Source: Ramazzottius varieornatus
Taxonomy: Eukaryota > Animalia > Tardigrada
Length of the DNA: 64,000 bases
Assembly: GCA_001949185.1 (NCBI GenBank)
Contig: BDGG01000002.1
Location: 3,958,448 to 4,022,447, forward strand
Direction: 5' to 3'
Position numbers and translations under genes: made by a program. Under the pieces are notes generated by a model. It searched no databases, had not been told where the DNA came from, and worked only from the letters and a program-made list of their open reading frames with translations. Positions 1,873 through 29,012 of this stretch are shown in pieces (position 1 is the first letter of the stretch; each line of letters starts with the position of its first letter).

Positions 1873-3401
1873 TCATATCCGAACACCTGAAGAGATACTG
1901 CAGGTCATACCAGCAACGTAGAAACAGGAGGAAGGTTGTCCGGAATCTGGATTCTGCATAAATGCAGGGAAGAACGGCGACTGACAGCGAGCGATGGCCC
2001 AATGGAAAACTGATTGACTGATTTCTATCAGACGGACAAAGTCAGCTGATTCCTGGCATTACATGACATCACATAACGTGATACAACTACAGTCCGTGAC
2101 GTTGTCGGCCCTCGGACGCACGTTTAGACTAAGGCCGGGAATGGCGGGAATATTCCCCCCCCCCAAACCCCACCCAAAAAACAGGACCGGGAACGTTTGC
2201 CTGGGAAGACCGAGAATGATAATTGGGGTGGGAATTATGATTAATAATATCACTGAAATATCAAAAAATGTTTGGCGAATCAGGTCTCGATACACCGACT
2301 TCCAAGCTTCGAAAGTAGCTGTTTGGTCTTGAAGCTGCGTTTGTTATCATGACTTGCATTCCCGAACTGTACAGTCTTAAACTGGAAAGTCGTGTGGGGT
2401 ATTCATGGCTCGTAATATGAGGACGTTTGTTGCACTGATTGTTGATGGTGACTGCACAGTCCAAGCGTGCTTAAGACACATCAGAGCTTCCCATTACAGT
2501 ACGGCTGTTTCTGTGCAAAAAAGGACACATCCGCACTGGACACCCCATTAGGACAACTCAAACCTGACGTTCAGATAAAAGAGGTCGTTTATTTTTGCTA
2601 AACGAGCCCCCGGACAGACTGGTGACCGAAAATAATCTCTGTCTACTCGTTTTAGCTGAACAGATTGAGCCAGTCTTTTATGCTAAAGGCAGACCATTAA
2701 CCTTTTCGGCAACGTCATGTCATTGCGCGAAGATTTTGAACATTAGACCTCCGTACCATTGAGAAGTCCCGGTTTCGCCACGGGAAGTAAACCTTCCATG
2801 AAGTTACGGCTGCTTTGCCTAGCCTGTTTCATGAGTGGTGCAATCGTTCAGAACCTTTCTACCGTCAGTCTTCCTACGGCCAATCAGAAAGAGCGTTTCA
2901 TATGTGTTTGACTAAGAAAATTTAAAAAGCTCGCCGGCCTCCGGCCGGCACTGTTTGTCTCTTTGACGTCGTCAGCTGTGAAGGTTTCGCTCTGCTTCTC
3001 GATTATCAGTGTATCAGTATTGTTATAAGGCTTCAGAATTGTGAGACCAGCTCCTTGCACTCACTTATCTTGTTACCAACCAATTTTTTCGGCTGGGATT
3101 TACGCGAGGACATGGTTCTCTAAACAGATGGACTTCGGCCTGTACTCACTCGAAAGTATGATCTTTGAAAGGATGAAAAATACTATTTACTAGTTATTGG
3201 AGTATTTATTTTAGTAAATTTTGGAATTACGGAATCACATCCCAGGAAAAGTCAGACCCTTAGCCCACCCCTGCTCGGACGGTCGGACCTCGGTCGGGGG
3301 GAGGGTGTCACATCGGGTATCCGAACTCCGGATTCTTGTTCTTGTTTTTTGCAAATCCCTTGTTGAAATCACAGGTTCCATCAATGATTCTTTCTCTTTC
3401 A

Positions 3402-4190
3402 GGGAAGCTTGCAGTAGTTCAAGATAAGGTCCGGGAGTCGAGATCGAAAATGATCACAGCAGCAGTCGCTAGCGGGACAGAGATCCAAAGCAAGGCGACA
3501 TTCGGCCCGGAAGGAGGACAGTCAAGAGGTCACTTCATCAAAGGCGTAGAAAGAACTGCTGGAGTTATGTAAGCTGGAGAACAAAAGCTTGGCGGAAAAA
3601 GTAGCCAAACAAGCCACAAAGTTGAACACTTCGGAAGCAGCCGCGGATCATCGGGGAGAACCGGAGGAGCGTTTGGGGAAGGCGAATCCGCAGCTGCCAA
3701 TCGCCTAAGAAGAGCTGGTTCAGCTGAAAAAGAAATACGGGTAATCTGGAAGGTTGTCCGCCTCCCGGCGAAATGGCCAAGATGTCCCTTGATTTGGCTC
3801 GACTTGAGAAAATAGATCGTCTTTGAAGGGTAAACGCTCCAAAGAATGGACATTGCGTTCAAGCAGTCACCAGAAATCGTTGAAAGTATCGCAGCGATTG
3901 AAAGCCTTGTCTGAACAAACATCTCTCTGGACATTTTCTATGGATGAAGGAATGCTAAACTTCAGATCTGTCTGTTTTTAGGCGTGATGGTCGCGGACGA
4001 ACACTGCCCTAAGAACCGTTCTGGAAGAAAGCTGATGCGTACAAGGTATTTCTACGCTACAGATTCGGAGGACCTCGACAGACCTGCTGACAGCTTGAAA
4101 CCCAACACGGGATCGCCTTCGGACGGTTCGGGGATGTCGCTGATAACTTCACGAAGTGGGCAACAAATAAACAGCGTCAAGAGGGAGTAA
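3402..4190 (+). pseudogene. Possible decayed multi-exon coiled-coil gene
   Basis: Acceptor-like tctttcag near 3401 is followed by E/K-rich reading ...SSKA*KELLELCKLENKSLAEKVAKQATKL...PIA*EELVQLKKKY with two in-frame stops. A donor-like gtaat follows, then further exon-like segments to 4190. Confidence 0.3.
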
Positions 4191-4466
4191 ACTTTCCAAA
4201 GAAAATTATTCTAACCTCGACTGCGACGAATATTGCATAACGGATGAATCGAGATGATTCCCGTTTTCCGTTATGATGATAACGACATTTTTATGTAAAA
4301 TAAACTCACATGTGATAAGGAAGTGTGATTTATCCACATAGAAGTTCCGAAACACACAGGATAAAACTATGTCAAGCGAAGTTTTCTCGAACTGTGTTCC
4401 GCAGCTTTCCGCGTGCTCGAAAATTTCTACGCGCAGAAATCAGACTTATCAAACAAAGTTCTTAAT

Positions 4467-7400
4467 CTATCGAAACTCTTCAGATCCTTCCGACAAACTT
4501 CTTGAATCCCCTTCGTCGTCCGCATCTCCCACCCGAAGCTTATGCGGCAAAAGCTCCAGATGTTTCTCACGCTGGTGGATGAGAAGGCGTTTTCCATTCT
4601 GGTACTGCCTTGTGCAGTATTCACCTACGGCAAAAGCTTCATAACAATATGCACATAAACAAGAAGTTTGGCGCTATAATCCTTACAAACGACAGCGTTC
4701 GAAAAAGCGCTAGCGATCTTTTCCGATCGCTCTTTCATCCTGTAGTCCCGATCGGCTTTGTGGAGTCTCGCCACGTGTCCGTCGTAGTTCTTCTTCCTCT
4801 TGAACTTCCGGCCACAGGTGTCACACACGAAGGGAAATTCATTCTGGTGACACACGTAGTGTATTGTCAAGTGCTTCTTGTTCTTAAACATCTTCGGACA
4901 CTTGTCACAGCAGATGTTCCTAGGACGATGGTAGGTCTTCATGTGGTGCTTTAGGTAGTTGTATTCCGGATAAGTCCGCTCGCAGAGACGACAGCGGAAG
5001 ACCCCGTTCACCTGATGCTTCTCCGTGACGTGCTGGTAAAGGTCCACAGAGTTCTTCAGATGTTCGAGGCAGATGATGCACTCCGCGAACCTTCCTTTGT
5101 GAAGCTACAAGCCCAAAAGATCAACAAAACTGATTCCTGTTTCTCGTGGACATGGTTCATTTGAAATTCTCTGACCGGGACGTGGGCAACGGACGTCGAC
5201 AATATCGTTTTGCTAAGTGGCGCACTCTTCCAGCTAATAACACTGAAAACGTGCGCCACATAGAGAAACGGTCGTGCCGGGTTTGTTTGCCGAGATAGGT
5301 CTCAACTGTCTTTTGAATCTTTCTCATGATATTAGTATTACAATTAGTTTTCATGCTTGAAACATTTTCTTTTTTACAAAGATTATTCTCGGAATGAACT
5401 AGAATAAGTCTGGCTTACCCGTTCATGGGATCCCAAGGCAGGAGCAGTGAGGAACACTTTATCACACTGCGCACACGGAAACTTGGGCTCATCATACGTC
5501 ACCAGCCTCTTCCCTCCGGGAGGATGCACTCTGCTCATGTGCCTCTTCAGGAAGGACTGCGTATTGTAGCACTGCTTGCAGATCTCGCACTGGAAGTCCG
5601 TCACTTTTGTCAGTTTCAGTGGCCACCGTCGTTGATGCTTCTTCACGTGGTTGAGCAGCTCGTCCATACTTTCCGATACCAAGTCGCAGCTCGGACATGT
5701 CAAACTCGGCGGACTATCAAGTGTCTTCCCGTGAGAAATACTATGCAAATCTAATAAGGCTTGCAATCGAAAACCCGCCTCACATTCATCACAAGCAAAC
5801 GTCGCGAAACGATAACTCTGAGAAAACTTCCCGGTTCGCTGTTTGGCTCGTTCTCGCGTACGGTCTATAATGCTAGTACCAGGCACAAATGTCTTCTTAA
5901 CCTTGGGTTTCTTTGGTTTTTTCGACACCTTCTTTCTCTTTACCTTCTTCTTCGGCTCTTCCACCACACTGTCTGTTCCTGCCTCTGTTTCACCTTCATG
6001 TTCCACTTTCTTCAAATTTTTACCAAGATCGCTTCTTCGAGTGAACCTTCTTCGGTTGATGCCGGTACTTCTCGCTCGTTCTCTTTCCAGACAATCCTTT
6101 GCCACGCTGAGCAGACTCTTGTCTTTCTCATCATGTTCCGCTTCGTCCAACTGCTTAACCAGATGTTCAATCGACATGATTTCTTGCACAGTCCGCATTC
6201 TGTCTTTCGGGTCATTTTCTAACATGTCCAGTGTGACCGGAAGTGGCACAAACTCGCCATACTTCAACGCTCGGTATCGTTCTTGGTTGTTGATTCTCTT
6301 CCGTCCGAGTCTATCCAGCTCTTCCTGGTAATCTGAAAACTGACCGTTCGCAGCTGCGCGTTCCACCTTGCGCAGCGCCATTTCTTCGAGATTTTTTGTT
6401 GTTCGTTTCCGGTGCGGTTTCCTTCCAGGAACCTTCTCGAGGAATGGCCGAGGCAGTTCCGCGTCGCTCTGTTCTTCGGAAGACTCTCTGGTCTTTGTCT
6501 TTTCTTCTTCCGGTGCCCAGTCACTTCCCGAATCGTGTACGTCTTCGTAATTCGCTTCCGGGAGGCTATCATGGTGGTCTTCAGTACCGCTCAACACAAA
6601 GGCAGCAGTCGATGTTTTGGTTTTGTCAGAGTTTCGCGTGGATCTTCGTAAGACAGGCTTCTCTTTGGCTATGAGTGCCTCGTTCTTCGCGTGCACTGGG
6701 CGTTGTTTAGGGATGCCTTTCGACATCACGTTTCTCGGGGCGAGCGGTGTTGAGAGAAAGCCGGCCAGGACCGAGGCTTCGGTTTCTATTTGGAACAAAA
6801 ATAATTAGTATTGCTGAAACCCAAGAAAGATCGCAAATTCGAAAGTCCAGAAATATGGGAGCTGAGCAAATGAGTCTAGTCAAATCGTCACCTCAAGTGC
6901 CGCACGTTCTGGTTGCTACTTAGCTAGAAGCCTGCGCCAGTTGGGAAAACGATCTGGTTCATTTCGTTCGCACAGCTCACTCGTACTCGACATGACACAT
7001 TCTACATTACCTTCGTCACCGGGAAGGAAGTTTGGCAATGCGGAGGTCTTCGCTAAAAACGTACTAGTCGTCGGGGTCTTCTTCAGTGGTGGAGACTGCG
7101 TAGCACATGTGCGCGGGAATGGCGTATAGAACGCAGAAGAGCGACGAACAGACGCAGCAAGAGATTTCCTGCTCGCCTCTTCAACGATCTTGGCGTACTG
7201 TGCGGAGTAGACGCCGACCAGCTCCTCGCCTGCGTGGACGGGCTTGAAAGACGAGAAGTAGATGCCACCTTGCTGCTGGAAGACCATCAAGTTAGCTTCC
7301 GATACCTGCTGAACTAGCCGGACAAACTTCAACCAGTTGCTGCTGTCATCCGACTTGAGACAGAAGAACTTCGTCACGACAGCCTTGTCTTCCGGTACCG

Positions 7401-7933
7401 ACAGTACATAGCTGAGGTCTGACTGTAGGTCCTCTTTATGGTCCACCAGTGTCCCAACTAGAGGACCAAAGACGGTGGGTTCTAGAATGTCTACTGTACT
7501 AATCACGCGATCACCTGCAAAGAAGCCTCATGAAACATCACTTCGGAAAACGTTTGCATTACACAACGTGCATACAAAAACGCGACGAGAGGCCTATTAC
7601 GATCAAAATTCGAGATGGTAAAGTCTGCAGGGAGAGTGGCATACGCTCGAGGCCGGAATTCTTCATCTTGAATTCCCCTTGTATGCAGGACACAAGGTCC
7701 ATCCGTCAAACTTCCACACACTGCACACTCTGCAAAACACCCAAGTCGCTAATCGTTCTGCCATCAATGAAAAACTTATTTGCATAATCTCTATTTGTAT
7801 CATTGTGCTAATAATGATCAGAAGGACGGAAATACCTTTAGTGCGAGTAGGAATATGACTTACTGAGTTCAGTGGAGGTTGGCTGTGGAATCAGCAGTAT
7901 CTGCTGCACTGGAGTACCATCGGGTCGGACCAT
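4467..7933 (-). CDS. PR/SET-domain C2H2 zinc-finger protein (PRDM-like), multi-exon
   Basis: Exon 1 (7933-7864, MVRPDGTP...TEL) splices in phase to KCAVCGSLTDGPCVLH (zinc knuckle). PR/SET motif NWLKFVR...NLMVFQQQGGIYF...GEEL..Y follows, then many CxxC..HxxxH fingers in ORFs 5383-6798 and 4625-5047. The last exon ends ...SEGSEEFR* at 4467. Confidence 0.88.
5215..5261. repeat. Palindromic dispersed element (core), in PRDM intron
   Basis: AAGTGGCGCAC-N25-GTGCGCCACAT. Confidence 0.8.
6895..6942. repeat. Palindromic dispersed element (core), in PRDM intron
   Basis: AAGTGCCGCAC-N26-CTGCGCCAGTT followed by aaacgatctgg. Confidence 0.7.
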
Positions 7934-8017
7934 CAGTGTGACTGTTAGACGACCGAGGTTTACTTTGGGAGCAATCGGTGTACCTATTGACAATATTACT
8001 TTCAAACTGAAACTTCC

Positions 8018-8934
8018 TCAGGTTAAGCACCGCTTTGAAAACATACCGCAGGCGTAGGCCATATCCAGGCATTCCATATCTCGCCTCTCCGCAACTTCGG
8101 CTGCCTCAGCACGGTGGTTCTCGGCCATGATGGCAGCGCTTGCATCTGCGATAAGAGCCGCACGCTTCGCCTTCTCGTGTACTGGCCGGAGGACAGGATC
8201 CAGGAGATCCCAATGTCGGCAGACATGAAGAATATTCTCTGCGGAAGAAGAAGAAGGCACTGACTGCTGTTCCCGCATGGCGGGCCATTGTTGCCACAGT
8301 ACACATAGTGCGAAGTAGAAAGCCAGTGGTCAACCCAATCAACTTGAACAAGTTTGCACGCTACGCGACCGTGGAATCAAAACGTGAGAGTCATGATGAC
8401 GTCATCAGTTGTAGCAGCACAGCTCATCATAACCAGCAGCAGCTTGAATTTACTTCTTCACGTTCAATTTGGGTTAAATTTTTGATTACCTCTCGTTCCG
8501 TCCTCCATGACATCTTGCAGTTCGTTTTCCGGCGAGAAGATCGAGGAATGCACAGCATTGAACTCCTGCATTAGTCGGTCCGCTTCCTGCCAAGTCCTGA
8601 CAAGGTGAGCAATTTTGTACATCACCTGATCAGCTGTCCGAATAATCCCCTCGGATTTCAGAAAGACGACGGCTTCTTCGCTAAAGGTCTGCATCGCACC
8701 CAACTTTCTCCGGCCATCGGGCAGCCAATTATCCAGCCTGTAACGGCTGTAATTGCCGTCCTTTCCCATCCATTTGATCAGTAGCATTTCGTCCTCCACG
8801 CCCCATCGTTGCGGTCGTGGCCTGGTATTCTTGATTTTAGGAATATAAAACTCGCGATCGTTCGTCTTCGTCGCGTTTGCGCTGCTGTCATCCTCGCCCT
8901 CCGGCTCCGCTGGATACTCCGAATCCCTGAACAT
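8018..8934 (-). CDS. Myb/SANT-like DNA-binding protein, 2 exons, about 221 aa
   Basis: ATG at 8934; a phase-1 intron 8489-8239 (gtaatc...ttcttccgcag) joins WGVEDEMLLIKWMGKDGNYSRYR...RTADQVMYKIAHLVRTWQEA to ENILHVCRHWDLLDPVL; stop at 8018. Confidence 0.7.
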
Positions 8935-9803
8935 GGTTATGGCTAGCCACCGTATAGATTTTGATTCAAACTTCAAAGGTTTTATTAATACCGAAAGCTT
9001 CTACCAATATGAAATAAAAATCAAATTTTAGAAATTTGTGAGTTCTTTCCCGGCTGCAAATCAACTCATGTTTCAATCAACTCGAATAGCTCGAACCATT
9101 GTCGCTGGTTGTTATCGCAATCTTAATACTGCAATTTTCATTTCCGGTTCTTTGTGGGACCAAAGGGCGTGACTGTCTCTGGCTCTTGGGCGATAGCTGG
9201 GACTTTAAGTACCGTGATTTCGTGTAGGTTTTTGCTAGGGCACTGCTGGGTACCGTGACCGCGATCGGAACTGGGAGGAAGGACGGAAGAGGCGTCGCTT
9301 CCTTATACGCGGACCTTATATCGTCGCGACCTCCGCATCCCACCTACAGACAGCAGGCTTTCGAACGGAGAACGTGGAGCCTTCTGCATAGCAGTGAAGG
9401 CTCAATCATGCGGTGACTTTCCAAAGTTCCGACGGAATTTGGCACGAGCGCAGATAAGTCATCGATATGGCGTTTACACCGCAGCGACTGAGCAGGTAAA
9501 AGAACAGCAGCCATTAATTAGGGAAAAACTCGTCTTATCGCCGTAATCATGCGTCTCTAGCTGCTTGCTGGTAACTTCTATACCACAGCAAGCTCAACAG
9601 GTGCACCGTAGAATAGAAACTGAGAGAACAACTGTAATTTGGTTTTTCTATCCATTATGAGGCACGTTCTGGCGATAACTTCTATAGCGCCTGTTCTCTG
9701 TTTTTCCCAACAAAATTATCGAGCCACCTACACAGACTTTCATGTTAGAATATATCTCAGACATAAGACCCCACCTGGTAACCGGTCAAATTAAACGCAC
9801 GCA

Positions 9804-9836
9804 TATAAGGAGAAACAGCCGAATCATTCCTTAGTT
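9804..9836 (+). promoter_or_regulatory. TATA box and Inr-like element for the secreted Tyr/Pro-rich gene
   Basis: TATAA at 9804-9808 and TTAGTT about 27 nt downstream, about 90 nt before the ATG at 9927. Confidence 0.45.
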
Positions 9837-9926
9837 CAAGGCGTATTATCGAAGAACTACTTCGCTCTGTTCGGCGACCCTTCTCAGGAGTAACTTTTCT
9901 ACTCTTCGGAATCTACAGTTTTAAAC

Positions 9927-10682
9927 ATGGTAAAACAATTCCTGGTAATTGCTTTCTTCGTTTGCGTAGTAGATGCCGGCCATAACGCCTACCACAATGG
10001 CTACGGTCAGCCCAGCTACGGAGATCGCCAGCAGCGCTACAACAGCGACTCGTACGATTCCGGCTCCAATTACGGACAAGTGAGTTTCGGGAAGGGACCT
10101 TACAACCAGAAGAAGTACCCGTCCAACTACCAAGCTGGGCCATCTTATTCGGACAACCAAGATGACTCCAGCGATGACAGCTACCAAGTACCCGCCGCTC
10201 CCGCCTACCATCAAGCACCAGCATACCAACCTAAACCCCAACAGTACCGTCGGCCGGTCGAGGACGTTCACGAAGCTCCTGTCCCCTCCAGCTCTTACCA
10301 AGACGACGACAACAACGATGACGACGCCTACAATGCACCGGCTTCCGCACTTGCCTATAACCAGTACCGACCACCGGTCCCCACTCCAGCTCCGTACGTG
10401 GTCAAGAACACGTACCGGAAGTACGCTCCGCCACCTGCTCCTTCGTACAACGACGATTACTCTGCTCCGGCTGCCGCACCAGTGTACCGTGCCCCATCAC
10501 CGGCTCCCGTCTATCACGCTCCAGCTCCCGTCTACCGCGCACCTAAACCGGTGTACCGTGCGCCGGCACCTGCTTACAGTGCCCCGACCTACAGCGAGCC
10601 GGCTCCCTCATACGACAATGCCGTTCCATCGTACGATGCTCTTGCTCCTTCTTACCATGCTCCGAGGAGCGTCGTCTATTAG
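9927..10682 (+). CDS. Secreted Tyr/Pro/Ala-rich low-complexity protein (cuticle/structural-like), single exon, 251 aa
   Basis: Signal peptide MVKQFLVIAFFVCVVDAG, then Y/S/D-rich segments and tandem PVY(R/H)AP repeats. Confidence 0.85.
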   Translation: MVKQFLVIAFFVCVVDAGHNAYHNGYGQPSYGDRQQRYNSDSYDSGSNYGQVSFGKGPYNQKKYPSNYQAGPSYSDNQDDSSDDSYQVPAAPAYHQAPAYQPKPQQYRRPVEDVHEAPVPSSSYQDDDNNDDDAYNAPASALAYNQYRPPVPTPAPYVVKNTYRKYAPPPAPSYNDDYSAPAAAPVYRAPSPAPVYHAPAPVYRAPKPVYRAPAPAYSAPTYSEPAPSYDNAVPSYDALAPSYHAPRSVVY

Positions 10683-10880
10683 AAAATGTGATTTAGTAAA
10701 TGTTTGAGAACGAGAATTTGTATGGGTTTGTCGAACCTTTGGGCTGGGTACTTTGGAAAAAAGTAAAGTGTGTACACCTTTTCGGCCACCAATGTCAGCG
10801 AGCAAGGGATGGACAGTGAGTTTTCAACGTACGAGCAGCCTCAGTAGACCCTATCCAGAAATTCCCAGCGGTGTGTCGTA

Positions 10881-11059
10881 CTGAGGCGAAGTATTTTCCA
10901 TTTTATACTTCGCCTCAGCTCCTACATTCGCGGGGGGCTTTTAACGACTCAGCCGGAGCTGATACGAAGCTTTGTCGAAACTCAGTCGAAGTTCAGTCGT
11001 TGTTTTATTCAGAGCCCAGACGAAGCTTCCGAACAGCTGCCAGCCGAAGCTGAGGCGAA
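10881..11059. repeat. Nested inverted repeat / hairpin element
   Basis: Perfect 14-bp stem ctgaggcgaagtat (10881-10894) / atacttcgcctcag (10905-10918). ttcgcctcagct (10909-10920) also pairs with agctgaggcgaa (11048-11059). Confidence 0.7.
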
Positions 11060-13397
11060 ATTCTGCTTAGACAACAGCGTAAAAAAGTTTCGGTTTCGAA
11101 AAAAATCCAAGCGAAAGCAACCCTAGTTTCTGGAAAAATAGAACACAGCAATTTCAAAACAGGACACTGAAATCAGCAAACCAAAATCAAGCTCAAAGGA
11201 TACCAGACGTCCAGGGAAACAGTGTCGCGTCGACAAAAGAAACACTAAAGAAAACACGGGAACGTTCTGCAGTTCAGCGAAGGGATACTCGTTGGCTCCG
11301 ACGACGCTGACGGTGTTCCAGTCTTTATTAGATGCTCCCATGTGCCGAATACGCGACCTAGAACAAGCCTGTCGTTGAGCGAAGATCGTCTTATCATCAG
11401 GGGACTGGGAGCATCAGGCATTAACTTACCCGTGAGTCAGGTTGGGAGTTCCCTTTCCGGTTTTCGACACATCCTCCATCCATCCCCAAAGCACCCTGTA
11501 GAAACAAAGACGAAACGGTTTAGCTGTTAACAAGACAAACAGGATAGACTGCCACGTTCAATTAAGAAAACGATCCGGGTCGAAGCTTTGTCGGGTTGAC
11601 AGGCTGTGTTGAACTGGGCACAACCTTGTCCTGCACAAATGTGTGCGGCCAAGGCCGTGCCGCTGTTGATCACTCTAGACAATCAACAATCAGCCAAACG
11701 AAATTTACGAAAAGACATAAAGCAGATCTCACCTCTTCCTCCCACTCCTAATTACGGTTCACCGGGAGCTTGTGAGAGTTGCCCGATTAAGGATGACCAG
11801 GAGGCAGGAACAGAGCTTTGTGGTGGGTAGTAAACCACGTATCACTTCCTCAAGGCCTGCAAGAGAAAAATGCTAGGTGACGCACCAGCCCATGTTGAGA
11901 CTGTCCATTTTGCGCGAGTTCGGCGAGTTGATCAAAGCCGTTGCCGCAGCGGAAAGATTTCCTTCCTACCTGGGTTCGGCTAACTCCACCGACATAGAAC
12001 GCCCAAAAGATGCGGAAAGGGAACTCCCCTCTCACCTGCAGTGACGATGCAGAACCTGAAACGGCAGACGTTCAGCTGGCAGCTTCAATGTCGAAAGAAG
12101 AATGGCCGGCCGTTGTAGACTTACCTTAGGTGAATCCAGAACACGCTTCACTAACAACGCTCTCCCAGCTGGATTCCTCTCCATTAGCAAACAGGCCAGT
12201 AAACCTGCCCATCAACATGAGCACAGAACCACATGGATATGCAAAAGCTGAAACGTTCTGGAAGGATTACTTCAAAGGAGCGAGATAAAGCGACCGTTAA
12301 ATCGAAGAAAATGAAATTGCTTTTCGAGTTGAAATTCGTTCAACTCGCGCGGTGAGTTGATTGCCCAGCTTGATTGATCATCCACTGCGCTTGCCAACAG
12401 AATTTTGGTTTGATACTGTCAGCTTGGTTCTTATCAGCGAAGACCTACAGTCCGCCGCTACATGGGAGCTTCCATCGCAATTCGCGTACTTGTCAAAATG
12501 GAGCGAACATCTTATTGGGCAACGTTCAGCGATTTTTTCATTCTTTGCTGCACTAAGACCATTTGGTTCAAACGAAACATCGCGTCGCTCGATTAGTAAG
12601 AAACCACAATCAACGCTGTCCAATCTGCCGACTAATCATAAAGGTACCGATCCAATAAATTAATTTCGTTTGCTCTATGGCTTGTGGGTGGGTGCTGCCA
12701 CCCAGAACAAGACCTTGGCAGCAGTTTTCTATCAGCGGAAGTCCACGGACCATTGACAACCTTATTGCACATGATTTAGCGACGCGCATGCCGGGAATTT
12801 TCTGGTGGGATCCCGAATTGACTAGTCCATTAGGCGAAGAAACAACGTTCTCGCTTTTCGCAGAGAAGGTCGATTATTGGAGAGGCGCAGATCAGAGAGT
12901 TTGTTCGCTCGAACACCGAAGAGACAATAGGTCCACGCGTTCGAAGTTGGGCGGCGAACCGCCCGGTACTTTCAAGTTGGTCATTTGCGGCACTTTGCGC
13001 TTTTTCTTTCTCATTGTTTGCTACCATATGTCATGAAAAGATATCAAATTTGATAGCACTAGCTGCGTCCATTTTAACCTAAAAATGAACTAATTGACTC
13101 GATCACAACGGAGAGATCGTGTCCGTACAAGGCAGGCACAATCAAATCTCAGGCCAAAAGTAGAGCAAAGTTCCCATTAACGCTCTCTACTGAAAGGAAG
13201 AAGCTCAAGGTAGACTTTCTCTGTTCGGGAAGAAAAGAATCGTAATTAATTTTGTTCGTCAAGAGAGCTGGAGAGCCTGCCATTGATTATATCTGCACCT
13301 CACGCCGGCGGTCAATAAAAACACATCATAAGCCATTCTCTTACATCTGCGATATCACTTCGGGGTTGAGATCGAGTGTTACAGGTTAATTTTTAAG

Positions 13398-14395
13398 ATG
13401 GCATTAGCTCGATATGTTTTAATCGCTTGCTCGTGTTTGACAGCCACCAGAGCGCAATACGGAGGTTTGGGCTATGGGTCAAGCCCTGGTGGATCTTCCG
13501 GTGGTAATGTCGGCTCCAGCGGATACGGTTCAGGCTCTTCTGGGTCGTCCGGTTACGGACCAGGGTCGTCCGGCTCTTTGGGCTACGGTTCAGGCTCTTC
13601 TGGTGGTGGAAATATGGGTAAATAAGTTCTTCAGTGGTTCGTAATGCGATAATCACTACAATAATTTATCAAGATCTTTTGCGAAAGCCGAAGATTTGAA
13701 GCTCTCACCGCAGTCTTTATTATCCACAGGCTCAAGCGCCGGCTCAGGCTATGGTGCGAGTCCAGCGCAGAGCAGTTACCCGTACGGTGGTTCCAGTAAT
13801 CCGGGCAGTGGTTCCAGTGGTTATGGCTCAATGATGTTCAGTGCTTTCGGTGGTTTCCCGTCGGGTTATGGAAATTCCGGCGGCGGATATGGAGGAAGCT
13901 CGGGCGGTTACGGAAATGGTGGCAGCTACTACACTACGGCTGCGCCGACCGCGTCATCCACAGGAGCGACCACAATCGCTCCCGGAAACACAACCTGTCC
14001 AGGTGCGGCTCCCATCGGCTGCAGATATCAAGCACTAATTGATCCGGTGACCGGAAACGTCTTGTTCTGCTTGCTGGTCTGCGATCAACCTGTTACGCAA
14101 ACCCCCACTACCGCTACCACGTCCGCATCCGTCACCGCATCCCCTGCTACCACGACAATTACGACGGTGACAGCCACCACTACCATCGATCCCACGATAG
14201 CCCTACAAGCTCAAATAGAGGCGTGCATTGCGGCTGGCCTAAGACCCGACCCAACTTGCACCTTCAATGGTTTCGGCCAGACAACACCACCGATAACCTG
14301 CGCTCAGACCTGCCCGTCGGCTCCTTTTCTCCCACCCTGCGACCCAACAGTTGGTACCATTATTGATAGATGCATATGTAGTCAGGCAATGTCTC
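13398..14395 (+). CDS. Secreted Gly/Ser/Tyr-rich protein with Thr-rich and Cys-rich modules, truncated by the assembly gap
   Basis: Signal peptide MALARYVLIACSCLTATRA and GYGSGSSGSS repeats. A phase-1 intron 13618-13729 joins the two ORFs in frame. Thr-rich linkers and Cys clusters run into the Ns. Confidence 0.8.
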
Positions 14396-15105
14396 NNNNN
14401 NNNNNNNNNNNNNNNNNNNNNNNNNNNNNNNNNNNNNNNNNNNNNNNNNNNNNNNNNNNNNNNNNNNNNNNNNNNNNNNNNNNNNNNNNNNNNNNNNNNN
14501 NNNNNNNNNNNNNNNNNNNNNNNNNNNNNNNNNNNNNNNNNNNNNNNNNNNNNNNNNNNNNNNNNNNNNNNNNNNNNNNNNNNNNNNNNNNNNNNNNNNN
14601 NNNNNNNNNNNNNNNNNNNNNNNNNNNNNNNNNNNNNNNNNNNNNNNNNNNNNNNNNNNNNNNNNNNNNNNNNNNNNNNNNNNNNNNNNNNNNNNNNNNN
14701 NNNNNNNNNNNNNNNNNNNNNNNNNNNNNNNNNNNNNNNNNNNNNNNNNNNNNNNNNNNNNNNNNNNNNNNNNNNNNNNNNNNNNNNNNNNNNNNNNNNN
14801 NNNNNNNNNNNNNNNNNNNNNNNNNNNNNNNNNNNNNNNNNNNNNNNNNNNNNNNNNNNNNNNNNNNNNNNNNNNNNNNNNNNNNNNNNNNNNNNNNNNN
14901 NNNNNNNNNNNNNNNNNNNNNNNNNNNNNNNNNNNNNNNNNNNNNNNNNNNNNNNNNNNNNNNNNNNNNNNNNNNNNNNNNNNNNNNNNNNNNNNNNNNN
15001 NNNNNNNNNNNNNNNNNNNNNNNNNNNNNNNNNNNNNNNNNNNNNNNNNNNNNNNNNNNNNNNNNNNNNNNNNNNNNNNNNNNNNNNNNNNNNNNNNNNN
15101 NNNNN
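14396..15105. other. Assembly gap (710 N)
   Basis: Run of n characters. Confidence 1.
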
Positions 15106-16126
15106 GGGAAAGCTACTCGTAGAGGCTAGGTGCAGTCGAGATATCTCCGGAGTTGTCGCTTCTGAAATTCTCTCCACCTTTTCAGGAGTGGCTCGAAATT
15201 CGGAAGAGTAAAGGGAGGCCAGGTAGCAGGTTCGACGTGTGTGATGTCATCAGCGAAGTCATGAGGTGCTCCTCGCGACCGAAGAGAATTTATTATTCAT
15301 CTCTTAAAGCGAGTAGCTTTTTCACTTATCAGTAGTGCTCACAAAGAAGCTGTTATCTAAACACATTACCACTGAACCTTCGGCAACTGCGTATCGCGGA
15401 GTCGTGTGCAGATTTCCGAAAGTTCGCTCGGTTATGCTTGAATGGATCGCTCTTGTGTTATTAATTCTCCTCTGTCGATGCGGCCTAAACTCTGAAGTAG
15501 CCGCTGCGATAAATTTCTCAGTGCCAGCTCACAAACATCATAATTTATACATCGTCATCGAGCGATGTTTCCAGATTTTAGTGAGGTCCAGATCGAAATT
15601 CTGGCAAGAATAAAGGAAGACAAACAGAATAGGATTGGCCATTTGGGGTAGAATTCGGACTTGAATGGGCGTTGCCGGCGGGTGCGGAATGGCTCGCCTT
15701 CAAATTCAAGTGAGCCCTGGCAAGCCATCAGGCCCGTGAAAACTGCGCTTGCTGACTTTGTGGATGTGCATCGGTGTGTACGGTACGGCCGGCTTGGCTG
15801 GTTTTCCCGCGTCGATTCGATTTTCGCACACGATGGTGGAAGGAAGCCATCCTTTCAGTGCGCGCATTTGATACTCGGTCGTCCTCGATATTTTATTTGC
15901 AATTGCAACCGTCGTCTTCTCCGTCCTTTCTCTGCCATTCCCCATTGACTGCAGTACTAGTCCTTGCTCTGCACCACTGGTTTTGTAACCTTTACGTTGC
16001 GTAACCTTCCATTGTTTCCAAGCGCGAAGCCAGTAGTTCCTCTGCCAGGAAAAGTGCCTGACCAAATTCACGTCGTTGCCTTTTTGTGTATACTCTTTAC
16101 ATCTGAACTTTTAGCTCAGTCTCAAG

Positions 16127-16606
16127 ATGGATAACGCTACCGGATCCACCGCAGCTACCAGCTCCAGCACTGGAGGCAAAGCAGGCGGCAAGAAGAGTGT
16201 GGGAAGACCCAAGAAAGCGACCGGAGGAGCAGCAGCCAAGAAAGCCTCACCAGCCAAATCTTCCCCCGCCAAAAAGACTGGCGGAGCTGGAGGAGACTCC
16301 AAGCAGACCAAGAGGAAAGCCACCGCTAAGGCTGGAGGTTCCGCCAAGAAGGGAACGGGAGTCCAGAAGAAAAAGGCAGCCGGCGGCAGCGCATCCAAGA
16401 GCAAAGGAAAAGGTAAGAAAGCTCAGTTTATAGTTTAGATTTTTGATTGATCAAATTGTTGAAACTGCGTTATTCGATCGAGTCAATATTAAGCTTCAGC
16501 TTGAGTTTCTCCTTCAGGAGCTTCCGCCAAGAAGGGATCGACTGCCAAAGCAGGAGGATCGGCAAGTAAGAGCAAGGGAGGTCGAGGATCCAAGAGCAAG
16601 AAGTAA
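16127..16606 (+). CDS. Small, highly basic, disordered protein (histone H1-tail / Dsup C-terminus-like), 2 coding exons, 124 aa
   Basis: Exon 16127-16412, GT-AG intron 16413-16517 (gtaaga...tctccttcag), exon 16518-16606 reading GASAKKGSTAKAGGSASKSKGGRGSKSKK*. It has 30 Lys, 3 Arg, 2 Asp, and GRPKK and SPAK motifs. Confidence 0.85.
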
Positions 16607-17479
16607 ACGGGAGACTTCTGTGGATGATGAACGAATGAACCAAGACGAAGAAAGTATTTTACGGGAATTTACGAAAGCAGAGTTTGTCCTTTGTAGACAG
16701 TACAATTTTGCATTCCTGATTCCTTCCCTGTTTATGTCGCCTTAACTTTTACAGCAGTAAGTTCTCTGTTGTTATTTTTTCCAGTGAAGCGCGTTTGATT
16801 GAAGTTTGCTGTTGGTATATCTCCGTTTTCCGTCTTGTTCCGTTTCCGTTGGCCGTTGTTTTGCTTCATTTTATGTTCAGGACTTCTTCCACGATCTCCC
16901 CAACGTCAATTATTTCTTTGAACGCGTATGACCAACTTATACAGCCAATTCCAATCTTTAATTTTTGTGAAAACGAAATACCTTCAGTAGAAACCCTCAC
17001 ATGACCAAAACAACTCCCTTCCGTTCATTTCCTCGTCCGCCTGCATTTACCGGTTTTTTTTTAAATTTTTGGGCCTATTCTGGCTGAAGAGATAAGTAGG
17101 CAGTTGGAGATGGAGCAAGAGGCAATCGATGTGTTGAGCGGAAAGAGAGAGAGTTGAGCCTGCTGAAGGAGTCTTTGTTCGTGCTTGGCCCGGAGAGGCT
17201 GCTTGCTTTTGGCTTTAGCTTCACTTCCCTCTTGCTGCTCGTTGGGAGGATGTTGTGGATGTGAGCGAGCAGGGTGGAAAAAGGAAGGTTTCTCCTGTGT
17301 GTACCATGTGCGATGTGCTCGTGTCGATCAAGGATGCAAGTGCCTGAGAATTTGTCTTTAAGCTTTTGAGAGAAATCCGATACACAGATCGAGCCTTTGG
17401 GTAGAGTGTGCGCGATGCTGGGTGGAATATCCAACAAGCACCGTCATTCCGTCATTTCCGTGATGATGATGAATCTCCG

Positions 17480-18389: not shown

Positions 18390-21300
18390 TCAGCTTGTCT
18401 CTCCACCACTTTCCTCCTCGCTTTGAACGGGCGTTTCATCGCCTTGCTCCCCGCCATTTCCCTTCTTTCGTTGTCGACGAAGTCTTTTAGGCTTGCCTGG
18501 CTTGGTCAGTTGGACCGACGGTTGCACTTCCTTATTCGCGCCCGCTGCTTCTTCTGGTCGTCGTTCCCTCCTGGCCACCTCTTCCTCCCAAGCCGTTATA
18601 TTTCTGACACACCCGTGAACCAGCTCAGCCGTGTTGGGGATAGCTGTGGCCAAAAGTGTAAACATGGGTAAGACAATGTGTTTCAGATAGCCTATTTGAT
18701 CTTTGGGCATATTGGGATAGTTGTCCCTGTCCATCATCGGCATCGGCTGATCACCGTACAGTCGCTCAGTGTCACCTTGTTGGTGGAACTCATAGTACAA
18801 GTCTTCTGTGCTGGCCCGATGGATTTCCCACGGCTTGGCAGAGACCACCAAGTCCGAGGAAGACATCATCAAGTTCATGACACGTTGACGATGGTCAGCA
18901 TTGTCAATGTCTAATTTTGTGTGGAGGATGTGTTCGAGGGTATTCTTTTCGGCAAAGTATGTCATTTGATCCGTGGCTAGAATGGCTTGTTTGACTAGGA
19001 AAGCGAACTGACTCTTGTCACCGTCAGACCAGCCGGAGAGGATGTCGTTCTCGGTGGACGACATGAGGCGGAAGGTCTCGCGAATGTGGTGGTGCTCCAT
19101 GTGGGATGCTGTGTAGAGCGTGTCGAAGGCTGTGGAGAACCGTTTTGTGAAGCTGTTGTTGTAACCGAAGTGGTCAAGGTCGTGACAGACGCCGGCGATC
19201 ATCAGGGCTTTCCGCTCCAGAATGTTGAGGAAATTCGCGTTCGTGTAAAGTATCACGAACAAGCAATGCGCCACCTTAAAAAAAACAGACTATGCTGACT
19301 TGTGCAAAACATACCATTTTGTAATCGTAACCAAAACCGTTTTCGTTCTGCGCCATTCTGGAGGATTTACTCGTATGGTTGCGAAATGATAATGCATTGA
19401 CACAACGTGAACCAAATACACGTATAGAGAAATCAGACTCGCCGTTTCTCTACTGAAGCTCTCATTTGGATCTACGGTAAAGGATGGTTCGAATACAAGT
19501 ACGGTACTGACGTGGAAGCCATGGGGCCAAGTGTGGTACCGAATATTCCGGTAGCCTTCCCGTACAGCAAGAACGAAAGACATGAGTTTCTCCCTGTGGA
19601 ACCCATCCGGTCCAAAGAGCGTATCCAGCATGAATACCAGCATCCCCGGCAACGCAAAGTCATCCACCAGGTACTTCGCACAGTAGAAGTCGTACGTGAA
19701 GAAGTCTTCCGGCGGCTGGAAGCTCTCATCACACAGCTTTCCCAGAGCAACGGAATCCGCCCTGTTCTCGTTACACAGCTTGAAGAACAGTTCTTCCTCC
19801 AGCTGTAAACAATACCACAACCATCTATCAAGGATGCAGAAACAGACGGTGTACAGATTAAAAGCAAACGGATTTCTTATCTACTTTGAGAGGTCTCGAA
19901 GTGACGGACATGCGGTGCCGGAAGTAGTGGGTGCCCATCGCGGAATAGCAGAACGACATCAGCGACCTCAACACGTTCTCTTCACACTGGGTGAAACCAT
20001 CCTTTCCGGCCGAGTTGACGAGCAGAAGGACTTCACAGGCTCTGCCTTCCCAGTCTTCGTTGAAGGCCATCGCGAGGAAGTTACACACCGGCGGACCCGG
20101 AAGCTTGTTGTCTAGGCCCATCTGTGCGATCCAGGCGTGAGAGGAATGTCGGACGTTGATAGAGTCGTCGAGATACTGAATGTTCCGGAAGAAAGTCTCC
20201 TTAATGGGAAGCGTCACTTCTTTAGAGTAGTCGTAATGGTAACCTTGCTTGGAAAACTTCCCTGTACAACAAAATCGGTTGCAACAAACAACGCAAAACG
20301 AAACGTCGGGAAACGATTCCACCCTGATTTTTGTCTCAAGCGGCGCACATGTCTGTTAATAGTAACGAAGATCGTGCGCCACTTGAAAAAAACCGATGTG
20401 GGTGAATTAAGATCGTCAACGCCGCAGATATTCTAAATTTGTTTGTTACCGGTATCGTAAACGGAAGCCACTGCGATATTGTCGTGGTGGTTCATCCTGA
20501 ACAGATGCACCCTGTCCGCGTTCATCTGACTCTTGATCAGCACCATGAACTTGTACAGGACGTTATCCCAGTTGGCCGGTCTGACGTATAGCTCCTGGAA
20601 TCTTGCGCCAAGTATTCTGTATGTGTTCACTTCTCTCCGGCAGTCCGCTCCACGCCAGACCATGTTAGCGAAGAACGTGATGTCCTCCACTGTTCCAATG
20701 AAGAGATCTTCCGGGAACGGCGCTGAAAAGTTCCATGTCCGGGTGAACTCTACGGCTCCTCTGATTACATCGTCCGAGTCACGCAGAGGTATGGCCATCA
20801 GGTGTCGGATGTTCGAGTCACGATCGCTGTTCGTCATGATAGCGTAGCGCAGATCGTGATCGATGTGGTTCCGCAGGAGAGCCTTGCCAATTTTCACGGC
20901 TTCGAGAGCAGGAAACTTCTGGACTAGACGGATTATCGTTGATGCACCTACCAGACCACAAAGAACGAAATAAAGACGGAGCACCGAAGAAACAAGATAA
21001 TATGGAATGTTTCAGGCACCTACACAGCCTACGCTGCACACATACTGTAACAGCAGAGCATGCAGGTTCGTGCAAGACGGAAGCAAAGGCGTACCTGATG
21101 GTCCCATCTTGCGTAGAGTGTCTCGTCCATGGTCCGTCGAGTACACCGAAGTCTCCTCCGCCCATATGGCCTTCCCGTAGTTCTGAGCGTAGTCGTAGAT
21201 GATTGAAAAGTCCGAAGATTCAGGAAAAGTCCCTACCATCGCTTCGCTCTTCTCTTCTTCCGTATAGCCCGGATCGCCACCGGCGTTTTCCGCCCCTTCC

Positions 21301-22563
21301 TCGGCACCTTCTTCCAGTTCCACCTTGTCTCTAGGTTCCGCGGGATCGAACCTGGTCTTGACACTAGGATGGATCAGCAACGAAGAGTTAACTTGAAAAC
21401 TTTCTTTCGGTGCTTTGATGTCAGGCAGGACGGTAGCGTTTAACATTGCTTCAGTTCCTACTTCCGGTTCGCGTTCTTGTACAACTGGAGGAGTTTCAGC
21501 TCTTCGGTGAAGGACGCTTGTGGGCTCCTGAGGGTGGAGGAGGTGCGGTGGACATTCGTCAACGTCCCCGATGCGGATGTACTTGGGAGTGGATGTGGAG
21601 CTTTGAACGTTAATCTTGTGGTGTTCGAAGAGCTTCGAACCATCAACAGGGTGATCCTGCTGACCGAATTCGCCACCAAGTTGATGTGAAGACTTCTTCC
21701 GAAGCTTGAACGGGAAACGATCCGTCTTAAAGGTCTCCTTAGGATACACATCTGTAATCGAAGACAAATTTCACGTACAGCACAGTCATCGGAAAAATAG
21801 CAAAAAGATTAACAGCGAACTGATTAAGTTACAGAAAATATTTTTTTCCTTGTTGTTGTTCGTACGGTGTCTCACTCGCGCAGGCAGCCGGGATCCCAAT
21901 GAACCGCTGATTCAGTTCGTCAAAGTTCAGCGTTCCTTTCTTCACACACTGGCTGGTCGCATACACGTCCTCCCCTTCCGTGTCCAGCACATCACAAAAC
22001 AGATTCTCCAACTCCCGATCTTCAAAGTGTTTCAGTAGCAAATCATGCAAAAACTCTCGATCTAACGTTCCATAAAACTGCAGCGCCACTTTCAGGTCGT
22101 TAGTGGTCATGTCACTGTGGCTATGTCGAGGGTCCTTCCGCGGACCATCAAAGTCCACTTGCTGCCCGACATTATTCGGGTTCTCCATCTCCACTTCTTC
22201 CTTCTTCTTACCCTTTCCTCTACCTTCCTTAGCCTTCTTCCCTCGCTTTTCTGTCTTCTCGTCTGGCACAGGTGATTCAGGTGGATTCAGCGATGGCCGA
22301 TCTGCCTGTGGTGCTTCTGCCTGTTCAAGGGTATTTTCTTCTCCCTTTTCGACCGGAGCGTCTGTAACTTCCGGTAATACTTCCGGCAGTGTTCCATCTA
22401 GTTGCACAGGTGTATCTTCCGGTGGTGGTAATTCCACCGCATCATTGGTAACTGTGTCACGACGCACTTCCACTCCAGGCTCTATCGGACTGTCGTTGAC
22501 TGGAACAGGTTCCACTGGTTCTGGCGCTTTTTGTTCGATCGGCTCTTCCGCAGAATCCATCAT
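18390..22563 (-). CDS. GAF-domain class I cyclic nucleotide phosphodiesterase (PDE10-like), multi-exon
   Basis: Catalytic motifs YHTWPHGFHV, CHDLDHFGYNNSF, MEHHH, ILATD, SDL..AKPW, EFHQQGD, PMMDRD, DQIGY. Two upstream GAF-like exons (LMAIPLRD; FLAMAF...VNS...FT) and a long acidic N-terminus. Confidence 0.9.
20338..20384. repeat. Palindromic dispersed element (core), in PDE intron
   Basis: AAGCGGCGCAC-N25-GTGCGCCACTT. Confidence 0.8.
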
Positions 22564-22945
22564 GCCACAAAGCTTAGCCTAATCGACAACCCAGAATCAC
22601 CTGAACTTCTAGTGGTTAGTGCGAACGAGAAAGTGTTCAAACGAAGATGGCAGTGGAACTTTTTCTCAGTGTGAACAGTACCGCTAGTAGTCTAGGTGAC
22701 TGTAGTGGAAAAGGCGCATGCATTAAGAGATGATGGGCCGGCTTTGTAGCAAAAGACAAGATGATCCCAAGTGTCGACAATATAATATTTTTTTAAAGCC
22801 CATTGATTGTCGTGATAAAAACCTCTAAAGTCAGCCGTACTTTGCGATGAGTATTGTTTTAGTGAAGTTTCAATACGCGAATAAAGAATGTTAGGCTATG
22901 AAAGCACCGGAAGTGGCAACAACTCAACTAGATGCAGTACCTCTT

Positions 22946-26609: not shown

Positions 26610-27834
26610 CTACTCCAGAGTTCCAGGTCGTTTCTTTCCTCGATGCACCATGGATATCTTTCTGTCATCGTCCACTGAATCTTCGGTAAATTCGTCTTTC
26701 TGCGTGCCATTCGCTCCGTTAGCATGGCCGTCCTCCCTTAGCGAGTCCCCGTTCGGGTCAGCCCAAGTAGAAACCCACCACCACACCAGACGAAGCGGCA
26801 ATGTGTCCAACTTCGAAAGATTCAAGTTGCTAACGTCTACCTTTTCTTCGTCTTCCAACAAGTCCGGAGCATACCTAGCACAAAAGCTGGTACACCAACG
26901 TGGGCCACTAAACTGATTTCGACAAGCTAGATGGGACGAAAATGATTTAAATATGATCGTTTTCCCAAATGACGCGCACTTTTAGCCGACACCACTGCAA
27001 ACGTGCGCCGCTTCAGATAACGATCATGTCATCCCAAACAGGTTCGGACAGTAAACCAGCTTACTGTTTCAAGAGGGCCTTGACGAAATTCTCCACTTCC
27101 TCTTCCATCTCTTCATCTTTCTGCAACTTCACAAGCTGCTTTGTGAGCTCTTCCCGCTTCTCTGCAGGTACTTCCGGTGCATATTTTCCAGCCATTTCGA
27201 CAATTTGAGCATACTTGTCGTCGTTCTTTCCCGTACTATCTCCGCTCCCATTCGTTTTATTGTCCAAAGTAGCCTTCATCAGGGTCTCCCTTCCCGTAAT
27301 CTCCAGAACGTATCCTTCGTCCCCGTATATATCAGCTGCTTCTTTAAGAAAGATGCTCTGATCCGTGTTGATCTGAATGTTGTCCACAATCAGCTCGATA
27401 TTCCTCTTCGCACACTTGTCCATAAGTCCATTGATGGAGACTGGATTCAGAAAGCTGACATGCTGTAAAGTAAGCTTGGTTAGCGGAGAGTCCTCCAGTT
27501 CATACAGCAGATACTCGTCAACGGTATCGTCCACGCTGGTCTTCAGAGCAGCACGATAATCACGGCTGATCTTCCCGAAGTGAATTTCGACGTCAGCTTC
27601 TTTGCCGTACACGAATACCTCCGTGACGTTCGGGGCAATGTCTTTCAGGAATTGTATGGCTTCTTCTAGAGGTAGCTGACTTTCGGTATCCTGGCCGAAG
27701 TCGTCTCGCAGATTCTTTGCATAGACGGTGAGGATAGATCCATCAAACGACATCCCGCTGTGAGACTCTTTCAGCCTCTTCGCTCCACTGACTGGCGTCC
27801 GGCAATCCGCATCTTCCGGCATACTCTCCGTCAT
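26610..27834 (-). CDS. Uncharacterised acidic protein, at least 2 exons
   Basis: ORF of about 257 codons from ATG 27834. A phase-2 intron (CA|gtaagc at 27064 ... gtgctag|G near 26877) joins in frame to YAPDLLEDEEKVDV... No family recognised. Confidence 0.65.
26953..27027. repeat. Degenerate palindromic dispersed element, in orphan-gene intron
   Basis: atgatcgt...gcgcac-N23-GTGCGCCGCTT...acgatcat. Confidence 0.65.
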
Positions 27835-29012
27835 CTTCACGAATTCCAGTCCGTTAGCAGCGATAGTTGTATGCCCCGGTACTCCTGACTGCCACAGTAA
27901 CGTCGACTTCGAACTTGTTTGCCAATATACTTGTGTGATCTATGTCGACCTTGTCTTGTCACGTCGTGTTATGTCATGTCATACGATGTCATGACATTAC
28001 ATACTAGGCTTACGCTCTGCTCTGGTCAAGATTCAAGAATCAAACCAAAACAAAGCCTGAGCTTAAAGCGCGCCGTGAACCATCTATGGGAAAACCTTGT
28101 TCGACGGATTTTCATGCGTTCTTTACGGGAAAAGACATGCGCACTGGCTACGGTTCGGAAGAGAGCTAGAAAGTCTGCCGTAGACGGAGCGAATGGCGAG
28201 GAGGCTGCAAGTGAGTCAGGCTCGTTCGAAGACTACTCGCCACACACGGGATGACGCCGAAGACTCGATGGAGTTGTACAGCATCTTCGCTTTGCTCGTC
28301 TCACGCCAGAACAGCTAGCTGCGGACCAATCCACGGTACGAGCAGAAATCTTACCTGAGCGAAAGCCTGAAGAGCTGGCTGTTTAGATGATAAGGGAATG
28401 TGGATCTTCATCCTTGCCTCCTTGGGGTTACCGAATCGAGCGCCTCGGTCACTTCAGGAGGAGCGCAAGCATATGGAGATCAAGAACTCTCTGTAGGCAA
28501 CGCCCGGCACACTTTGTCTGGAATATCAAGAAAGCAGCCCACTTGTATTAACTTTCGTGAACAAGAACATATAAAATAAAAGCAAATCCGCCAGAGACGA
28601 GATTTTCCGAGCAAGCTGCGAGTTGTGGTCACGGTGTAACTATTGGGAAGGTCTTCGAAGGCCCTTAGATTGCATCAACAGACTTGACTGTTTGGATCGC
28701 CGTGCATCAATCAATTGTGATATTGGGAAACAAAAAAATCTTCAGGACGAGGAAGATTTGTTTCGCTATCGTACAGTTCTGCAAGCTTCGAATTCGACAT
28801 TATCAATCAACGACCTTATTTGTTTTCCGAGTTTGATGCCGATCCAGATCCTCTCTCGCAACGTAAATTATCGTTCAGTTCTGATACCATTTTTGTTTTC
28901 CTCACACTGTTTTGAGTGGATGAAAGTTGTCTTGCGGCAAAAACAGAGGTTACTGAATGAGACTGAATCTATCCGTTAAAATTCCATTCGGTGAACTACA
29001 ATCTATCGATGA

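Follow-up and report, generated by a model that had tools for sequence, protein, structure and literature searches.

The interval 16127-16606 on the (+) strand of the window (the whole 64,000-nucleotide stretch of Ramazzottius varieornatus DNA that was analysed) contains a real, spliced and polyadenylated gene, which is an uncharacterised, embryo-enriched tardigrade gene. Its product of 124 amino acids (aa) is predicted to be disordered, and a role as a DNA-coating polycation is plausible on the basis of its composition. The reading that we favour, which in our judgement is as apt to prove right as wrong, is that of a tail-only polycation similar to an H1 tail, which would coat embryonic chromatin and would come off once two SPAK sites are phosphorylated by CDK.

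Results

The coding sequence is divided over two exons, i.e. 16127-16412 (95 codons plus one base) and 16518-16606 (including the TAA stop codon), separated by a phase 1 GT..AG intron of 105 nt at 16413-16517 on the (+) strand, and splicing generates a 375-nt frame specifying 124 aa. The intron, initially proposed from inspection of the sequence, was corroborated by contigs of all four RNA-like runs, derived from four studies and each represented by one contig, in which the exon junction is present. The RNA status of these four runs is a guess, which fits with their splicing, their poly(A) end and the absence of coverage of the flanks. The contigs start at positions 15754, 15789, 15827 and 15842 and end at 17005-17013 (4/4 runs), and the contig of run X7 carries 22 A residues as a loose end, thereby placing the poly(A) site at approximately 17013. 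Runs X15 and X18 cover intergenic DNA at a depth of 2-4, lack the junction and look like DNA, while runs X21 and X23, from another organism, yielded nothing at the locus, which is no proof of absence.

The 5' untranslated part of exon 1 (15754-16126, at least 373 nt) is unspliced up to the first donor in 4/4 runs and contains, at 15764-15871, two upstream open reading frames (ORFs) of 35 aa (ATG at 15764, included in the longest contig only) and 12 aa (in-frame ATG at 15833), with one stop codon for both. An in-frame TAG is located at 16112-16114, four codons 5' of the start codon, and the stop-to-stop ORF runs from 16115. The 3' untranslated region (16607-17013, 407 nt) contains neither AATAAA nor ATTAAA, and none of ten common poly(A) signal hexamers is present near the 3' end, the sole match being AAGAAA at 16648. 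A single CPE-like TTTTAT was observed at 16869 and, together with the upstream ORFs, these elements give a hint of translational control of a maternal mRNA. A histone 3' stem-loop was not found, as three Rfam matches fall far under the gathering score and a stem-loop pattern is unmatched. A frame of 177 codons, the longest one in the mRNA that is free of stops, was rejected because its first ATG comes only at the last 36 codons and the repeats described below are not conserved in it.

The lack of a 5' joint in the contigs, combined with the in-frame TAG, indicates that these libraries hold no upstream exon encoding a globular domain. Pfam analysis of exon 1 and 11 nearby frames identified no winged helix (one unrelated match at E 0.15), the 710-N assembly gap at 14396-15105, directly 5' of the gene, being unreadable. 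The claim made from the sequence that a winged helix is absent was thereby upheld by the four contigs, the TAG and Pfam. A contig of run X15 extends 359 letters into this gap with five differences, at a depth of 3.5 and with a loose end at 15940. Furthermore, a pyrimidine tract with two AG dinucleotides at 16080-16119, just 5' of the start codon, is acceptor-like and unused in 4/4 contigs; given this tract and the unreadable gap, a rare alternative first exon may exist.

Pfam analysis of the window identified, in order, PFKFB, a PR-domain zinc finger, the studied gene, a GAF-phosphodiesterase, an FGGY kinase, JmjC, cytochrome b5 reductase and a C4 zinc finger, and the same order is found on Scaffold002 as RvY_04755, 04759, 04764, 04770, 04775, 04776 and 04780 (PMC5034306). 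RvY_04763 is located directly before the phosphodiesterase RvY_04764 and is listed as a two-exon, hypothetical gene with no similarity (PMC5034306). Its mean IUPred score is 0.81, and it appears once in the all-proteins column of the same source and not among the dehydration-condensing proteins (PMC9592077). Judged from its order among the genes, its number of exons and its disorder score, the studied gene is probably RvY_04763, an identity that is strongly inferred from order. It is unlikely that annotators overlooked the gene, since the RvY_04763 model published for this place has two exons. At the start of the window, the PFKFB exon shares 77% identity with both the Hypsibius exemplaris and the Paramacrobiotus metropolitanus proteins; of 303 candidates, only these two reached E 1e-40 or better, and no identical R. 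varieornatus PFKFB was among the matches listed, which speaks against the gene identity.

Several other features were observed in the window. A single-exon frame at 9894-10682, probably RvY_04760, specifies a signal-peptide-like, Tyr/Pro/Ala-rich repeat protein that is cuticle-protein-like and has no Pfam match, while a secreted-looking product at 13332-14395, probably RvY_04762, carries Gly/Ser/Tyr repeats, with Thr-rich and Cys-containing segments after them, and enters the assembly gap. The phosphodiesterase at 18390-22578 (-) is PDE10-like, its upstream region being long, acidic and disordered, and has a relative (P0001) that is 80% identical. An uninterrupted ORF of 292 codons at 27061-27939 (-) has no Pfam match.

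The 124-aa product (11.5 kDa, pI 11.6, net charge +31) comprises 30 K, 26 G, 24 A, 20 S, 10 T, 3 R, 3 P, 2 D, 2 V, 2 Q, 1 M and 1 N, while E, L, I, C, H and all aromatic residues are absent; recomputation from the spliced frame thus reproduced the length, charge and composition given by the sequence-only reading. The first 20 residues are neutral, after which each block of 20 residues carries a charge of +3 to +7. The best 15-residue hydropathy is -0.27 with no hydrophobic window, and this lack of a hydrophobic segment indicates that there is no signal peptide or membrane anchor. In charge-hydropathy terms, the product falls on the disordered side of the boundary, and AlphaFold2 analysis of exon 1 as a single sequence assigned no secondary structure (pTM 0.15, mean pLDDT 61).

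The three AGGSA(S)K copies, the GRPKK and the two SPAK motifs noted earlier were all located in the product. GRPKK (16202-16216, aa 26-30, with GRP starting at aa 26) is degenerate and AT-hook-like, lacking the Arg before the Gly and having no Pfam match, while the SPAK motifs (16247-16273, aa 41-44 and 46-49) match the S/T-P-x-K CDK consensus; all three prolines of the product fall within these SPAK/GRP motifs. AGGSA(S)K copies 1 and 2 (starting at aa 69 and 85) are located at 16331-16408 (aa 69-74 and 85-94), and copy 3 (starting at aa 107) is located in exon 2 at 16550-16579 (aa 107-116). Among 20,000 composition-preserving shuffles of the product, at least two SPxK were present in 62, the AT-hook-like GRP pattern in 35, two S/T-P-x-K/R plus GRP together in none, and a repeated word of at least 10 aa in three, counts that flatter the motifs since these were picked after viewing the sequence.

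Residues 85-94 and 107-116 are identical at the protein level and share 20 of 30 nt, while residues 66-73 and 104-111 are identical in protein with seven nucleotide changes, all of which are third-position changes. Two of nine and four of nine repeat residues are kept in the other sense frames, and seven of nine in one antisense frame. Judged from this codon pattern, the repeats are kept at the protein level, indicative of constraint on the coding frame; a repeat simulation (0/100,000) overstates the case since the stretches were picked for amino-acid identity. Two words resembling the histone H3 tail, a likeness noted post hoc, were additionally observed, i.e. STGGKA at aa 14-19 (16166-16183) and KQTxRK at aa 59-64 (16301-16318), which occur in 730 and 46 of 200,000 shuffles, respectively. 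PDB searches with these two stretches returned nothing at E up to 10, and a histone-tail mimic is possible as far as these words suggest.

Homolog searches were performed with exon 1 as the query (95 of the 124 aa). No match was obtained by phmmer (0/1266 candidates at E up to 10), no relatives were identified in 1.84 billion representative sequences, and neither PDB, Pfam nor NCBIfam produced a match; the best ESM Atlas scores (0.75-0.77) are under the useful range, and unfiltered tblastn against the 64-kb window retrieved only the query itself. Metagenome scans (with exon 1 and with a phosphodiesterase alignment) identified no locus, and an unspliced read-through protein was not found in the protein collection. 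These empty searches agree with the lineage restriction proposed from the sequence, and constitute weak evidence since the query is of low complexity.

A single H. exemplaris scaffold carries PFKFB (BV898_09522), the PR zinc finger (09534) and the phosphodiesterase (09540), and BV898_09540, which matches RvY_04764, is adjoined by BV898_09539. The latter is tabulated as tardigrade-specific and hypothetical, with no BLAST homolog in that table (including no R. varieornatus match), and is down approximately 3-fold after 1000 Gy (log2 -1.56, padj 7.5e-6), a dose which halts cell division and egg laying. BV898_09538 is chitinase-like, with its best match located elsewhere. BV898_09539 is a positional candidate ortholog only; a check of synteny, as advocated by the sequence-only reading, thus supplied a positional counterpart and no tabulated BLAST hit in R. 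varieornatus. Full-text searches of the open literature found RvY_04763, BV898_09539 and OQV16396 named nowhere, and likewise GAU92715 and GAU92716 (accessions guessed from neighbours), while topic searches of the open literature retrieved no description of such a protein. An AEGIS preprint (10.1101/2025.06.10.658754) ranks Dsup-like nuclear candidates.

The published expression data (PMC5034306), with one library per state, assign RvY_04763 FPKM values of 962 in embryos of 0-2 d, 489 in embryos of 3-4 d, 19 in active adults, 11 in the dried state and 16 and 19 after rehydration. The embryo/adult ratio is 49-fold with no desiccation induction, and the early-embryo value is the second highest among 48 consecutive rows of the published table. 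Of the expression pattern sought by stage and stress, the embryo peak was therefore present and the desiccation response was not. Of 17 'core histone' matches, the first six supplied the comparison genes, which displayed FPKM values of 2800/2328/164 (H2A, RvY_05958) and 3364/2656/280 (H2B, RvY_05959) in 2 d embryos, 4 d embryos and active adults, respectively (PMC5034306); in early embryos, RvY_04763 mRNA is approximately one third of that of one such H2A or H2B gene. A linker-histone row was not present among 8,991 of the 19,521 gene rows (PMC5034306), and rows for RvY_04763 and RvY_04755, sought for a finer time course of development, were not found in the searched supplements of PMC6925440 and PMC9145152. 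Embryo bias is typical for lineage-specific R. varieornatus genes (PMC9791283), and the near neighbours RvY_04756, 04757, 04758, 04761 and 04765 are also embryo-biased at lower levels. The PFKFB-to-phosphodiesterase interval (2000-16600) contains the embryo-biased orphans RvY_04756, 04757, 04758, 04761 and 04763, which possibly form a co-regulated cluster; in the published table, the values of the phosphodiesterase at 18390-22578 are themselves low and biased towards embryos.

Discussion

In H1 tails, CDK phosphorylation of S/T-P-x-K sites loosens binding, and SPxK and AT-hook GRP motifs bind to the DNA minor groove. In the mechanism that we propose, the many Lys pairs would direct nuclear import of the 124-aa protein, whose evenly spaced lysines would neutralise linker DNA with no sequence or nucleosome-dyad specificity, while GRPKK and SPAK would possibly favour A/T-rich minor grooves. 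CDK phosphorylation at S41 and S46 would loosen the protein during the cell cycle, and the protein would act beside canonical H1 in rapid embryonic divisions rather than replacing it, any shielding of DNA from radicals being a by-product. The chromatin reading is favoured by the embryo/adult profile of RvY_04763, which follows that of the core histones, by the constraint on the coding frame, the missing hydrophobic segment and fold and the motifs that exceed composition, by the precedents of tail-only H1 in ciliates and Euglenozoa and of special embryonic linker histones, and by the fall of BV898_09539 after a dose that halts cell division. It is weakened by the fact that embryo bias is common among orphan genes here, by the single library per state, by the matching of the gene to RvY_04763 through order, exon number and disorder, by the hook lacking an RGRP core, and by the empty exon 1 homolog searches and the missing R. 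varieornatus BLAST hit of BV898_09539. The 26 Gly and only 3 Pro of the product also argue against an H1-tail reading, the H1 tail being described as a proline-kinked Ala-Lys helix (PMC3380720). A more far-reaching version, in which the product represents a second embryonic chromatin protein in tardigrades, acting as a globular-domain-free linker-histone substitute near core-histone level that is conserved by position across eutardigrades (BV898_09539) and that, controlled by CDK, compacts the chromatin of cleavage stages, is somewhat doubtful.

Composition cannot tell DNA from RNA, since any polycation shifts DNA in vitro, and RNA or ribosome binding is the main rival. According to this alternative, which we deem unlikely, the product would be an RNA-binding polycation of the egg or embryo acting in the nucleolus, on stored ribosomes or in maternal mRNPs, with Lys/Gly repeats used like RGG boxes. 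Its Gly-rich basic repeats (26 G, 30 K) are more in keeping with this than with an Ala/Pro-rich H1 tail, its mRNA level is highest in the earliest sample, and the upstream ORFs and single CPE-like element hint at translational control. However, the product has 3 Arg and no aromatic residues, which are the residues that RNA-binding disordered regions usually use, and its SPAK and GRP motifs suggest DNA.

It is improbable that the gene encodes a second, embryo-stage Dsup-like shield selected against radical and desiccation damage to DNA. Taken by itself, the basic C-terminal region of Dsup binds DNA and causes nuclear DNA to aggregate (PMC5034306), and the absence of induction leaves protection possible, since Dsup is likewise higher in eggs than in adults and is not stress-induced. 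Against this, the product has no RRSARLSA-like motif nor any RR, its locus differs from that of Dsup, and the H. exemplaris positional candidate falls after irradiation; the low levels in desiccation-tolerant adults (19 FPKM active, 11 dried) also leave the DNA-protective role suggested by the sequence-only reading with little weight in adults. Slightly less probable still is the binding of another acidic polymer (e.g. cleavage-spindle microtubules) or a function as a decoy substrate of histone-modifying enzymes: a protein that is basic and disordered, carries CDK-consensus sites and peaks while embryos divide would fit spindle proteins equally, and the two H3-like words, noted post hoc, would suit a decoy, but the product is devoid of the helical or repeat module of known microtubule binders, and those two stretches retrieved nothing from PDB at the E-value limit given above. 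A protamine-like germ-cell protein or a relic thereof, retained in a parthenogenetic lineage, is very improbable: although sperm nuclear basic proteins are descended from H1, with Mytilus PL-IV as an example of their small Lys/Arg-rich types (PMC10046793), only females have been reported in R. varieornatus (PMC11191345), which makes a sperm protein unlikely, expression peaks in laid embryos and Arg accounts for 3 of 124 residues, so that the earlier suggestion of a protamine-like role was not sustained.

Under the more far-reaching version, animals would have an H1 analogue of the tail-only type in the embryo instead of in sperm, which might also shield egg DNA. If the product coats embryonic chromatin, it would demonstrate that the part of the early-embryo linker histone can be played, in an animal, by a protein without a winged helix. 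It would furthermore constitute a natural 124-residue comparator for what the HMGN-like motif of Dsup adds beyond charge. If, instead, it binds RNA or nothing specific, it would be one more basic orphan among approximately 8,000 lineage-unique genes. Few tardigrade-specific nuclear proteins have been studied (Dsup, TDR1 and TRID1), and these were found via adult chromatin or stress screens, which this gene would escape, as it is low in adults, is not desiccation-induced, lacks aromatics and yields small trypsin pieces. DIPA-CRISPR is reportedly a knockout method for R. varieornatus, and the existence of knockout methods for this species renders the chromatin-role question directly testable.

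Among known systems, Dsup (RvY_17224, BV898_01301) resembles the product in being tardigrade-specific, disordered, basic and higher in embryos, yet identity with Dsup was rejected, as the locus is another one and the HMGN-like motif is missing. The scaffold and neighbours of Dsup (dienoyl-CoA reductase-like, TSC22-like and ribosomal protein S22-like) differ from the PR-domain zinc finger and GAF-phosphodiesterase that flank the studied gene, and the resemblance to Dsup pointed out from the sequence therefore did not translate into a tie. The absence of the HMGN-like motif, also pointed out at that stage, was confirmed, as the product has no RR or RRS in contrast to the RRSARLSA of Dsup (PMC6773438). 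Dsup is also longer (324-445 aa versus 124 aa), exon 1 of the product lacks a predicted helix (AlphaFold2), and the level of Dsup in day 1-4 eggs is just approximately 2- to 4-fold above that of active adults, whereas the gradient of RvY_04763 is far steeper. TDR1 is similarly small, basic and tardigrade-specific and binds and aggregates DNA (PMC11233135); however, it is strongly radiation-induced, its C-terminal domain is conserved, and no TDR1 was found in R. varieornatus (PMC11233135). The candidate ortholog BV898_09539, in contrast to TDR1, is at another locus and is down after irradiation.

HMGA proteins are built from several RGRP-core AT-hooks and an acidic tail. The product is similar to these in size (approximately 100-120 aa), disorder and the presence of a GRP-containing motif, but it displays one degenerate hook, no RGRP core, no Pfam AT-hook match and no acidic tail; HMGA membership was rejected as the product contains one GRP and no RGRP. 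Mytilus PL-IV and H1-derived sperm basic proteins are also small and Lys-rich, and are H1-related and linker-DNA-bound in that setting (PMC10046793). The PL-IV type is sperm-specific, whereas the product is embryo-enriched in an all-female species, and a sperm nuclear basic protein was rejected on the grounds of the embryo peak, the females-only record and the low Arg content (3/124).

A canonical metazoan H1 was rejected since no winged helix is present, as judged from Pfam, the in-frame TAG, the absence of a 5' splice in 4/4 runs and the pTM of 0.15. With respect to the H1 tail, the 30 K, 24 A and two SPAK motifs fit, while the 26 G and 3 P do not. The linker histones B4 of Xenopus, CS-H1 of sea urchin and H1oo are tripartite with a globular domain. 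In most animals, the early embryo has a special linker histone of its own, and BigH1 (Drosophila), B4, CS-H1 and H1oo are like the product in stage, being abundant in the early embryo and low later (PMC7498357), though BigH1 is likewise tripartite with a globular domain (PMC7498357) and the product has none. The ciliate and Euglenozoa H1 proteins (Tetrahymena Hho1 and kinetoplastid H1) are, like the product, small, Lys-rich and without a globular domain (PMC6957481, PMC3380720). The product differs from these in that no homology was found, in that it is much richer in Gly and embryo-enriched, and in that its chromatin binding is putative. H1 of H. exemplaris is present in a proteome table, and R. 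varieornatus as well as H. exemplaris seems to possess canonical H1 (PMC6773438); in contrast to the Hho1-type proteins, the product thus derives from an animal that is reported to have canonical H1.
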